Positions 823 through 10,052 of a stretch of DNA of 10,955 bases are shown here, in pieces. This DNA is from a virus, in UHGV virus genome UHGV-2150205; one strand, written 5' to 3'. Both the position numbers and the translations under genes were made by a program. The notes beneath the pieces were generated by a model. It was not told the origin of the DNA and did not search any database. It worked only from the letters and a program-made list of their open reading frames with translations. Position 1 is the stretch's first letter, and the number at the start of each line of letters is the position of its first letter.

Positions 823-898
823 AATGACTCCTGTGGATTGATCCAGTCTTTCTACATCAGGCCTCGAAGAATTCGCCGTTCTTCGGGGCTTTTTCTTT
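817..898 (+). ncRNA. oop: oop-like short antisense RNA, predicted. An extended -10 (TGtCATAAT, 817-825) would start a transcript near 832 that ends at the intrinsic terminator at 861-898, antisense to the 3' end of cII.
   Basis: The plus strand carries an 11-bp stem (861-871 pairing with 879-889, loop ttcgccg) followed by tttttctttt, opposite the last codons of cII. This is the arrangement of lambda oop and its terminator. The promoter assignment is by eye only. Confidence 0.45.
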
Positions 899-1144
899 TG
901 TCAGCATTCTGGCTACTTGCTTAGCCAGTTCCGCCAACTCCTCGTCTTCAACACCCCATTCCAGCACAGCCAGAAGCATGGCCATCTTTGGGATAAAGCT
1001 GTCTTTCCATCGCGAAATTTGCGATTCATTAATCCCTAACGCGTCGGCAACCTTTCGCTGACCACGTACAGCAATTCGATTCAGGATGTTAAGCAACGCA
1101 CTCTCGATTCGTAGAGCCTCGTTGCGTTTGTTTGCACGAACCAT
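857..1144 (-). CDS. cII: CII transcriptional activator, 95 aa ([95 protein letters not shown]).
   Basis: Strong similarity to lambda CII as recalled ([19 protein letters not shown]..., [17 protein letters not shown]). The start was moved to the internal ATG at 1144, which has an AAGGA RBS and matches the lambda cII start context; the track ORF begins 29 codons upstream in frame. Confidence 0.9.
861..898 (+). terminator. Rho-independent terminator on the plus strand, overlapping the cII 3' end in antisense (tO-like).
   Basis: gcctcgaagaa / ttcttcggggc stem with a 7-nt loop, then a T-tract at 890-898. Confidence 0.65.
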
Positions 1145-1162
1145 ATGTAAGTATTTCCTTAA
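1122..1162 (+). promoter_or_regulatory. pRE-like CII-activated promoter: TTGC-N6-TTGC (1122-1125 and 1132-1135) embedded in the 5' end of cII on the opposite strand, directed toward cI.
   Basis: The plus strand reads cgTTGCgtttgtTTGCacgaaccatatgtaagtatttcc, which matches the lambda pRE/CII-binding region as I remember it. Confidence 0.6.
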
Positions 1163-1175
1163 CAAATAAGAAGTT

Positions 1176-1196
1176 ATGCGCATCAACTTATGCGCG
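1176..1196 (-). terminator. tR1-like hairpin between nutR and cII (GCGCAT-loop-ATGCGC in cro-sense); probably a weak or Rho-dependent pause or termination site.
   Basis: A 6-bp self-complementary stem is visible, but there is no strong U-tract. The call rests on position by analogy to lambda tR1. Confidence 0.3.
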
Positions 1197-1202
1197 TTGT
1201 AT

Positions 1203-1245
1203 TCCCGCATTTCGGCGGGAATGAGGACCATGACTGTTAAAGAGC
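1203..1245 (-). promoter_or_regulatory. nutR: boxA (GCTCTTTAACA, plus-strand coordinates 1235-1245) and boxB hairpin (TCCCGC-CGAAAT-GCGGGA, 1203-1220), just downstream of the cro stop.
   Basis: boxA matches the rrn-type consensus. boxB is a 6-bp stem with a GAAA-containing loop. The identical boxA and boxB recur on the plus strand upstream of N (nutL). Confidence 0.7.
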
Positions 1246-2829: not shown

Positions 2830-2874
2830 TTAGCCATCAGCAGGACGCTGGCAGCCAAACGGAACAGATTGGCA

Positions 2875-2916
2875 GGCTCTTTAACATTGATGGGATTGTC
2901 CCGCCGAAATGCGGGA
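2875..2916 (+). promoter_or_regulatory. nutL: boxA GGCTCTTTAACA (2875-2886) and boxB hairpin TCCCGC-CGAAAT-GCGGGA (2899-2916).
   Basis: boxA and boxB are identical in sequence to the nutR copy on the minus strand and lie downstream of pL and upstream of N. Confidence 0.7.
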
Positions 2917-3087
2917 ACCAAAGAGTAGTTGGCTTTGGGGTGTGGTGAAGGGTTCATGGACGGGAATATGTCGCACGTAAAGCGGCGAGGCCTGCGGGAC
3001 TATTCCCGAATTGAAGTCGGACGAAGCGGGTCGAAATGGGTCTCCCACCTACCACACCACCAAAGCTAATCATCTGAGGAACAGAAA

Positions 3088-3207
3088 ATGTTAGACATCA
3101 TGACCAACCCAATTCTCGGTGGTTTAGTTACCACATTCGCCATCTGCTTCGGTTTCACTATCTGGTCTGAAGTAGATGACTGGATGTGGGAACGCAAAAA
3201 CAAATAA
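3088..3207 (+). CDS. Leader micro-ORF, 39 aa (MLDIMTNPILGGLVTTFAICFGFTIWSEVDDWMWERKNK), a predicted single-pass hydrophobic peptide between nutL and N.
   Basis: GAGGA RBS 7-8 nt before the ATG at 3088. The hydrophobic core is ILGGLVTTFAICFGFTIW. It is below the track cutoff and coding status is unproven. Confidence 0.4.
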   Translation: MLDIMTNPILGGLVTTFAICFGFTIWSEVDDWMWERKNK

Positions 3208-3247
3208 TCATCGACACACAAGGATGTGTACCTTCCCGGAGGTCAAC

Positions 3248-3547
3248 ATGACAGTAGTCATTACATATCTGGCTGACGATAACGCCAGAAATCGCCGCAG
3301 AGCACGCAGACAGGCTCAACGTGAACAGGCAATGCAAGAGCAGCGACTGGCGCGAAAAATTGCGCTAAAGCTCTCTGGTTGCGTCAGAGCAGATAAAGCA
3401 GCATCACTCGGAAGCCTTCGCTGCAAGAAGGCAGAAGAAGTTGAGCGTAAACAGAATCGTATTTACTACCGCAAGCCACGCAGTGAAATGGGTGTGACTT
3501 GTGTTGGTCGCCAGAAAATGAAATTAGGCAGCAAACCACTTATTTGA
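3248..3547 (+). CDS. N: N-type transcription antiterminator, 99 aa, with an arginine-rich motif near the N-terminus (NARNRRRARRQAQ) and a lambda N-like C-terminus (YRKPRSEMGVTCVGRQKMKLGSKPLI).
   Basis: GGAGG RBS 6 nt before the ATG at 3248. The N-terminal MTVVITY resembles P22 gp24 and the C-terminus resembles lambda N (SKPGERGITCSGRQKIKGKSIPLI), both from memory. The track ORF (3176 start) extends upstream into the micro-ORF. Confidence 0.85.
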   Translation: MTVVITYLADDNARNRRRARRQAQREQAMQEQRLARKIALKLSGCVRADKAASLGSLRCKKAEEVERKQNRIYYRKPRSEMGVTCVGRQKMKLGSKPLI

Positions 3548-9027: not shown

Positions 9028-9237
9028 ATGGCTATCGCTGCAAGTTACACCATGCATCTCTATTGTGACTGCCTCCAGTGTACAGATGGCAAATATAAGT
9101 CGCCAGACTTCGGTGAGTATATAGGTACGTCATGGGCTGGCTGTGCAAAAGAGGCGCGCAAGGATGGCTGGCGAATAAGCAAAGACAAAACACGTACTTT
9201 TGCGCCCGGGCATAAAGTTTTGAGGATTAACACATGA
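9028..9237 (+). CDS. Small Cys-rich hypothetical protein, 69 aa (MAIAASYTMHLYCDCLQCTDGKY...).
   Basis: AGGAG RBS before the ATG at 9028. Contains a CDCLQC motif and a further Cys. Confidence 0.55.
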   Translation: MAIAASYTMHLYCDCLQCTDGKYKSPDFGEYIGTSWAGCAKEARKDGWRISKDKTRTFAPGHKVLRINT

Positions 9238-10052
9238 CCACTATTACCAAAGAACGTATTGAATTGTTCATTAAAAATCCGCTTGAAAACGGGCTTGCCC
9301 GTGGCGAACAAATGGAACTGGCGCAGATTGCACTGGCCTCACTGGCAGCAGAGCCGATGGCGTGGAAATGGCGGCTTACTAGTCTTTTTGACGGTGTGCA
9401 GATTGGCCCGTGGCGGGTGTGTCTTGCGCCACTATCACCCGGCAAGGGGGATGGGTGCAAGACAGAAGCTATTCCACTTTACACCGCCCCGCCAGTACCG
9501 TTAGTACCTGCTGCATTACCTGAGAACGACGATGAGGACGGGCATGACATTGATTATCTTGAGCCATCTGAAGTTTACGCGCTTGGGCGAACATCTGGCT
9601 GGAACGCCTGCCGCGCTGCCATGCTTCATAGTGCCGAACCTGTAAGCCAAACTTACAACTTGCCACAAACGGAGTTTGAACAGGTTGCTGACCTCTACAA
9701 AATGCAATTTGATGACGGTCGCACTTGTGCCTTTCACACTGATGCGCAAAAGGCTGCTCAATGGCTTCAGACGTGCGACGGAAACAGAGTTCAGGAATAC
9801 GTGAAGCTGGAACGGTTGCAGAATGCGCTGTCTGGCAACTATCCGGTAACTCCGGATGGTTGGATAAGCTGTAGTGAGCGAATGCCAGATGATGGTCAGC
9901 ACGTAATTATTTTATGTGATGGCGCATTCGTTCTTTATGCGCAATATCGAGACGGTGAGTTTTTTGATGTTGTCCGCAATGGTGAGGAGTTCTTCGAAAC
10001 GCAGAGCCGCAATGTAACCCACTGGATGCCGCTACCAGAACCGCCGCTCTGA
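9234..10052 (+). CDS. DUF551-domain protein, 272 aa.
   Basis: The C-terminal region (DGWISCSERMPDDGQHVIIL...FVLYAQYRDGEFF...VTHWMPLPEPP) is characteristic of phage DUF551 proteins. ATGA overlap with the upstream gene. Confidence 0.7.
   Translation: MTTITKERIELFIKNPLENGLARGEQMELAQIALASLAAEPMAWKWRLTSLFDGVQIGPWRVCLAPLSPGKGDGCKTEAIPLYTAPPVPLVPAALPENDDEDGHDIDYLEPSEVYALGRTSGWNACRAAMLHSAEPVSQTYNLPQTEFEQVADLYKMQFDDGRTCAFHTDAQKAAQWLQTCDGNRVQEYVKLERLQNALSGNYPVTPDGWISCSERMPDDGQHVIILCDGAFVLYAQYRDGEFFDVVRNGEEFFETQSRNVTHWMPLPEPPL

Follow-up and report, generated by a model that had tools for sequence, protein, structure and literature searches.

The window, that is, the whole stretch of 10,955 nucleotides of virus genome UHGV-2150205 that was analysed, comes from a lambdoid phage and represents its immunity-left region, in which pL is transcribed along the + strand. 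Besides the genes listed here together with the transcription and leader features between them, PHROG scans identified cIII, Erf, SSB and exonuclease:

857-1231, minus strand: cII (PHROG scan)
1554-2270: cI repressor (PHROG scan)
2267-2656: hkaS-like gene (PHROG scan)
2801-2829, + strand: pL promoter, sigma-70-like, -35 TTTACA, 17-nt spacer, -10 TATTCT (consensus scan)
2876-2886, + strand: nutL boxA GCTCTTTAACA, read directly; the nutL is identical to that annotated in HK620
2899-2916, + strand: nutL boxB hairpin tcccgccgaaatgcggga, read directly; same identity with the HK620 nutL
2928-2947, + strand: 5' arm of the closing duplex (fold; identity with lambda, 933W and HK620; covariation)
2948-3049, + strand: variable interior of the 933W/HK97/phi80 type, 102 nt, ~57 % G+C
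3050-3070, + strand: 3' arm of the closing duplex, A3059 bulged (fold, lambda homology, covariation)
3076-3081, + strand: Shine-Dalgarno sequence GAGGAA preceding the 39-aa ORF
3088-3207, + strand: small ORF encoding a hydrophobic product of 39 aa, stop codon 3205-3207 (phrog_7482, E = 8e-25)
3238-3242, + strand: N's own Shine-Dalgarno sequence, GGAGG
3248-3547, + strand: N antiterminator (phrog_271, 'anti-termination protein N-like', E = 5e-37)

The pL promoter aligns collinearly with OL/pL as annotated in HK620, where the homologous stretch bears the label pL/OL1-3. The transcript is predicted to start at about 2836, since the start region of the window, catcagcaggacgc, matches that of lambda, ATCAGCAGGACGC. 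The boxB of nutR (minus strand, 1203-1220) is identical to that of nutL and is preceded by the boxA cgctctttaaca. At nutR (1203-1245, minus strand) boxB is followed by the hairpin gcgcataagttgatgcgc, and the G/U-rich boxC-like run present at nutL is absent there. Thirteen nucleotides in the 5' flank of the nutL boxB (2892-2904) are 85 % complementary to positions 2994-3006 farther downstream, and their pairing could in principle compete with boxB folding; this complementarity is not conserved with other nutL types and so was treated as probably due to chance.

Downstream of the nutL boxB the pL transcript enters a hairpin of 143 nt, in which a G+C-rich interior of 102 nt is closed by a long duplex; the first ATG (3088) lies 22 nt beyond it. 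The complementarity between 2932-2947 (gctttggggtgtggtg) and 3050-3066 (taccacaccaccaaagc), from which a structured leader element had been proposed on the basis of the letters alone (hereafter the sequence-only reading), was confirmed, and RNAfold lengthened the duplex to 20 bp between 2928-2947 and 3050-3070, including three G-U pairs and leaving A3059 bulged. The basal duplex thus provides about two helical turns (at least 20 bp) around a large loop. Its conserved cores are CTTTGGGGTG at 2933-2942 in the 5' arm and CCACCAAAG at 3057-3065 in the 3' arm. Folding of 2925-3075 gave a stable structure with an MFE of -63.1 kcal/mol (z = -4.0; none of 200 shuffles was as stable), compared with -55.4 for the minus strand. 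Of 1081 sliding windows of 150 nt over the whole sequence, none folded as stably as the one with the hairpin, at -62.7 (mean -35.8, sd 7.8). The G+C content, said to stand out from AT-rich surroundings, is 0.54-0.57 over 2840-3079, compared with 0.28-0.44 just upstream and 0.43-0.48 downstream.

That the segment is a small protein gene, or an intrinsic terminator or attenuator, is scarcely credible. A TTG-initiated ORF of 46 aa is listed at 2929-3069, and in one phage record the matching stretch is annotated as a hypothetical protein, but the start codon is missing in the commonest context, that of 933W, almost every substitution is non-synonymous and in-frame stops interrupt two variants, so that the coding ORF was rejected. 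A terminator was rejected because no T-run follows the 3' arm and none was detected on the + strand.

The excess stability of the hairpin comes entirely from the closing duplex. The interior alone (2948-3049) has an MFE of -32.1 kcal/mol against a shuffle mean of -31.3 (z = -0.22), and interiors taken alone, including those of the lambda, 933W and HK620 types, give z values between -1.4 and +0.3. In an alignment of 23 distinct variants of the interior class, the MFE structure of the window interior is 90 % paired. The sequence-only reading was right about some 100 nt of GC-rich sequence inside the duplex but not about the ggga-ctat-tccc hairpin that it named there: the central G-C pair of this hairpin needs C3005 and is found in only one of the 23 variants. 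RNAalifold of these little-varied sequences preferred another arrangement, 98.9 % paired, in which one helix (columns 63-68 / 101-106) contains two compensatory pairs; these come from a single divergent sequence and are equalled in 6 of 500 shuffles. The interior is probably a spacer or loop, whose secondary structure is probably weak, poorly conserved and unimportant.

The sequence-only reading had suggested that the element could be the counterpart of the RNase III-processed leader of lambda, and the direct homology of both arms with lambda, 933W and HK620, joined by the covariation of the helix described below, supports this. The lambda N leader has the equivalent two arms in the equivalent position (ggctttggggtgtgtg...ccacacaccaccaaagcta), and its stem arms, ggctttggggtgtgtg / cacacaccaccaaagcta, are homologous to both arms of the window. 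Lambda, 933W and the window agree fully in CTTTGGGGTG and CCACCAAAG, and lambda and the window share the bulged A; in a four-way alignment of the window, lambda, 933W and HK620, CTTTGGGGTG is invariant and the interiors are unalignable. In lambda as in the window the hairpin begins about 90 nt from the pL transcript start, just after boxB, and a start codon lies about 20 nt beyond the end of its 3' arm. The sizes are also alike, the distance from CTTTGG to CCAAAG being 119 nt in lambda and 133 nt in the window. The differences lie in the interior, which is unrelated in sequence, in the upper stem, which is GTGTGGTG/CACCACAC in the window and GTGTGTG/CACACAC in lambda, and in the downstream cistron, which in the window is the 39-aa ORF.

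The lambda leader is reportedly cut by RNase III at +88 and +197. We take these cuts to map to UUUGG^GG and CACC^AAAG, with a 2-nt 3' overhang, inside the conserved base. By homology, the 5' arm of the window would be the strand that receives one of the two cuts. This arm, GGGGUGUGGUG, overlaps what lambda workers call the nutL boxC (GGTGTGTG). In RefSeq the lambda N CDS (L001, NC_001416 35037-35438) is annotated from an upstream ATG within the leader hairpin; the protein then begins MCQSRGVFVQDYNC... and not with the accepted MDAQTRRRERR, so this start looks over-extended.

In other lambdoid phages the closing base is combined with both similar and unrelated interiors. The leaders of 933W, HK97, HK106, mEp234 and phi80 are 88-96 % identical to the window over the whole hairpin including the interior (interior identity 95 % in 933W, HK97 and HK106, and 88-90 % in phi80), and the records of these five phages carry no annotation of the element under the match. 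The 933W leader differs from the window in its nutL and in having an H-19B-type N 17 nt after the hairpin. HK620 shares the base, which encloses a short unrelated interior, and its N, nearly identical to that of the window, follows at 19 nt. The element was found in 98 phage records and in 499 of 5426 complete E. coli genomes (~9 %), with a median of one copy per carrying genome and in a single position only.

Pattern scans of IMG/VR for the base gave 240 loci, from which chance matches were then removed. Inside the shared base of these loci about 20 unrelated interior classes of 40 to ~200 nt were recognized, and the hairpins stood 15-22 nt upstream of N genes of three families (lambda-, 933W- and HK620-type). 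Since sampling by the base pattern forces a constant base, loci were also retrieved through the N protein alone. In this N-anchored sample 156 of 160 N leaders contained the hairpin, with 69-229 nt from CTTTGG to CCAAAG and in most cases 17-19 nt between its end and the ATG of N; the four leaders that lacked it were truncations or sequence errors. The closing helix was present in the MFE structure of every interior class tested.

Across 56 distinct arm pairs, 89 % of the cells of the 22-pair helix were paired, in comparison to 33-46 % in slid controls, and compensatory changes on both sides were found in 11 of the 22 pairs (102 cells), which none of 500 shuffles reached. The duplex proposed by the sequence-only reading is therefore backed by compensatory base changes among homologues. 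Natural variants of the base also covary, GGGATTGGATG occurring with CATCCAATC in the N-anchored sample, and the frequent G-U pairs are tolerated only in RNA of the + (transcribed) strand. As the stem is conserved and covaries while the interiors are unrelated to one another and fold like shuffled sequences, the closing duplex is the functional element, in support of the lambda-counterpart reading. The near-invariant sequence of the base exceeds what a generic double-stranded RNA target would need, which hints at an additional constraint.

A pattern scan of genome contigs returned mostly chance matches. Seven passed the filter, of which two look like chance and five look genuine, namely one from Superficieibacter (L431) and four identical to lambda. 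The lambda hairpin stands at 100 % identity on tiny contigs of 314-1119 bp (L417, L430, L451 and L466) in assemblies of Marinifilum breve, Limosilactobacillus vaginalis, Nocardioides marinquilinus and an alphaproteobacterium, most likely through contamination with lambda DNA.

The conservation of the base in sequence, beyond what pairing requires, could also mean that the arms are kept mainly as DNA recombination junctions through which nutL, interior and N modules are exchanged, the RNA helix being incidental. One and the same base joins different nutL types, different interiors and three N families, and in phage CUS-3 the region between cI and N bears the annotation 'boundary sequence'. We nevertheless consider this very unlikely, given the published RNA function of the lambda stem and given that the changes seen in both the upper and the lower helix, whether compensatory or to G-U, and those in the variants of the base point to selection on RNA pairing. 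A DNA-junction role may coexist with the RNA role but cannot explain the covariation.

The same samples bear on the notion that a miniature transposable or palindromic repeat (MITE, ERIC-like), bounded by terminal inverted repeats, has moved into the leader. The hairpin does form a well-delimited unit of ~140 bp whose ends are inverted and whose G+C content differs from that on either side, but it always occurs in N leaders, at one position, and it is the interior alone, not the whole unit, that is present or absent between phages. With no dispersed copies, and no N leader among the 160 without the arms beyond the four truncations or sequence errors, this origin was rejected as extremely improbable.

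The sequence-only reading had left room for a distinct regulatory RNA. A form of this idea is that the hairpin serves as a launching pad from which RNase III frees the interior with the upper stem as a stable functional small RNA, tRNA-like or a decoy, the interiors then being RNA 'morons'. It would fit the occurrence of the interiors as discrete cassettes that are ~90-95 % identical across many phages, the loop motif GAUCAGCAC common to several short classes, and the D-arm-like and T-arm-like (GCTGGTTCGACTCCAGC) hairpins of another class, for which a compensatory variant exists in Superficieibacter. If cleavage occurs as in lambda, the excised RNA would end in ...CACC-A-CC. For the window class the well-paired RNAalifold consensus and its two compensatory pairs could be added, were these pairs not owed to one divergent sequence and matched by shuffles. 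Moreover, the interiors of the window, 933W and lambda fold no better than shuffled sequences, and interiors ranging from ~40 to ~200 nt share no architecture. Rfam gave no gathering-score hit in the window, and at E values up to 10 only chance-level matches outside the element; ARAGORN detected no tRNA or tmRNA in the window or in 20 related loci. A tRNA-like nature of the window class was rejected, both T-arm and D-arm being absent from it and confined to another class. The distinct-RNA suggestion was accordingly not borne out: the interior is one of about 20 interchangeable fillings, and nothing supports an excised functional RNA for the window class specifically. The launching-pad explanation as a whole is judged unlikely. 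Its generalized version, in which the base GG/GGUG...CACC-A-CC/AAAG is a universal excision socket that frees the cassettes, at least some of them being functional small RNAs (RNA-level morons of the earliest transcript), is given little credence. If it were true, the freed RNA would begin with a paired G and end 3' in ...A-CC, resembling a tRNA minihelix, and this end could be completed by the CCA-adding enzyme; the class with D- and T-arm-like hairpins would be the strongest candidate and the 933W/HK97 class of the window a possible one. The 102-nt interior of the window is one of many interchangeable fillings, and its sole role is most likely that of a loop or spacer for the duplex.

Several interior classes other than that of the window have structure of their own. 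In one class the 5' arm is immediately followed by a D-arm-like hairpin, GCTCAACGGCGAGC, and the 3' arm is immediately preceded by a canonical T-arm-like one, GCTGGTTCGACTCCAGC (L011 7891-8035; L025, L120, L122; and L431 from Superficieibacter electus). The Superficieibacter copy (L431) has a compensatory stem change, GATGG...CCATC. ARAGORN was negative for this class, and Rfam gave only a chance-level tmRNA T-arm (E = 7.7). Short interiors that otherwise differ share a 3'-proximal hairpin with the loop GA(U/A)CAGC(A/G)C, whose stem covaries (CCGG/CCGG, GCCG/CGGC, CUGCG/CGCAG) and which is missing in the window class; it was seen in IMG/VR classes 0, 3, 6, 15, 21 and 35 and in the 107/159-nt classes (e.g. 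L003 975-995, L276). One short class (L283, L300, L315, L319, L323) has a poly-C tract whose length varies from 6 to more than 13 residues, with an N in one assembly, and is combined with the base variant CCGCTAAAG, which places a G-U pair in the conserved stem.

The published work on lambda provides the frame for the function of the closing duplex. The citing articles state that RNase III processes the leader RNA of lambda N (Steege 1987, cited in PMC5371410), that this enzyme positively regulates, or activates, N synthesis (Kameyama 1991, cited in PMC9032294), and that N together with Nus factors, when bound at NutL, represses translation of N across an intervening leader that is 'highly structured' (Wilson 1997, 2002, summarised in PMC5725501). 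Literature searches on leader processing in 933W/HK97-type phages or H-19B found no report of cleavage.

The element of the window is very probably a lambdoid-phage hairpin for processing of the N leader. It varies in sequence from a regulatory hairpin that has long been known, and is as such ordinary, though modular. Its cleavage and its role in translational control would follow the lambda scheme. During transcription from pL (start at about 2836) the boxA and boxB of nutL would be made first and the 143-nt hairpin next, with the N/Nus-modified polymerase remaining attached to nutL. The duplex would then bring the ribosome-binding site 3' of the hairpin close to the nutL-bound complex of N, Nus factors and RNA polymerase, and with this proximity N could act in cis as a repressor of translation. 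The RNase III of the host is expected to cut both strands of the basal duplex and so to detach nutL from the downstream message. The cut would relieve the repression, and expression would in this way track RNase III activity and the growth state of the host.

A related arrangement is found in the rrn operons, where boxC follows boxA and supplies the 5' strand of the leader-trailer helix that flanks 16S rRNA and is cut by RNase III, and where the antitermination complex has been proposed to hold the boxC strand for pairing with its later-made partner (PMC10250234; PMC8632103). In both systems a nut-like boxA/boxB site precedes a strand rich in G and U, namely boxC UCUGUGUGGG in rrn and the 5' arm GGGGUGUGGUG in the window, each being the 5' strand of a long duplex. 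The rrn helix differs in its loop, which is the 1.5 kb 16S rRNA as against ~100 nt in the window, and in its purpose, rRNA maturation and not translational control; beyond the G/U richness it has no sequence homology to the window.

The position of the hairpin with respect to N needed correction. The sequence-only reading had placed the element upstream of N, and it does lie 5' of N, but not directly, since the 39-codon ORF (3088-3207) intervenes. The first cistron after the hairpin is this ORF, and N starts 40 nt beyond it, so that the hairpin abuts the ribosome-binding site of the ORF and not that of N. The usual rule, with the hairpin 17-22 nt before the ATG of N, thus fails in the window, where N lies 182 nt downstream, and any control of N itself would be indirect. 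The N-terminal part of the window N is identical to that of HK620 N, and its C-terminus is lambda-like. In HK620 and 933W the 39-aa ORF is missing and N directly follows the hairpin; compared with HK620, the window has an insert of ~160 nt between aatcatc and ggaggtcaac. The ORF-before-N arrangement occurs in 7 of the 80 loci with the window type of N, the six others showing conservative amino-acid changes in the ORF.

Elsewhere the slot between the hairpin and N holds unrelated ORFs of 44 and 46 aa, and in 24 of 80 loci with HK620-type N it is filled by ~205 nt in which no clear ORF is seen. Besides the window (3088-3207), slot insertions were seen in L015, L068, L076, L081 and L118, in L048/L122 and in L216. 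The inserted ORFs each occupy a position 14-22 nt after the hairpin. Small-ORF insertions at the 3' edge of the hairpin would mean that a regulated ribosome-binding slot is reused by accessory genes.

With the lambda-counterpart reading, an unannotated and very common element of 933W, other Stx phages, HK97 and phi80 would come under a known mechanism. It also gives a simple rule for annotating N leaders, in which a base of ~20 bp is near-invariant and covarying and the interior is freely swapped. By the parallel with lambda, the dosage of early-left genes in Stx phages may likewise depend on the RNase III of the host.

One other unusually stable local RNA fold was noticed in the window, at 9800-9975 on the + strand, inside the ORF 9234-10052 (phrog_60, unknown function). 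It has a folding energy of -65.5 kcal/mol at ~46 % G+C (z = -4.65), and none of 200 shuffles was as good.
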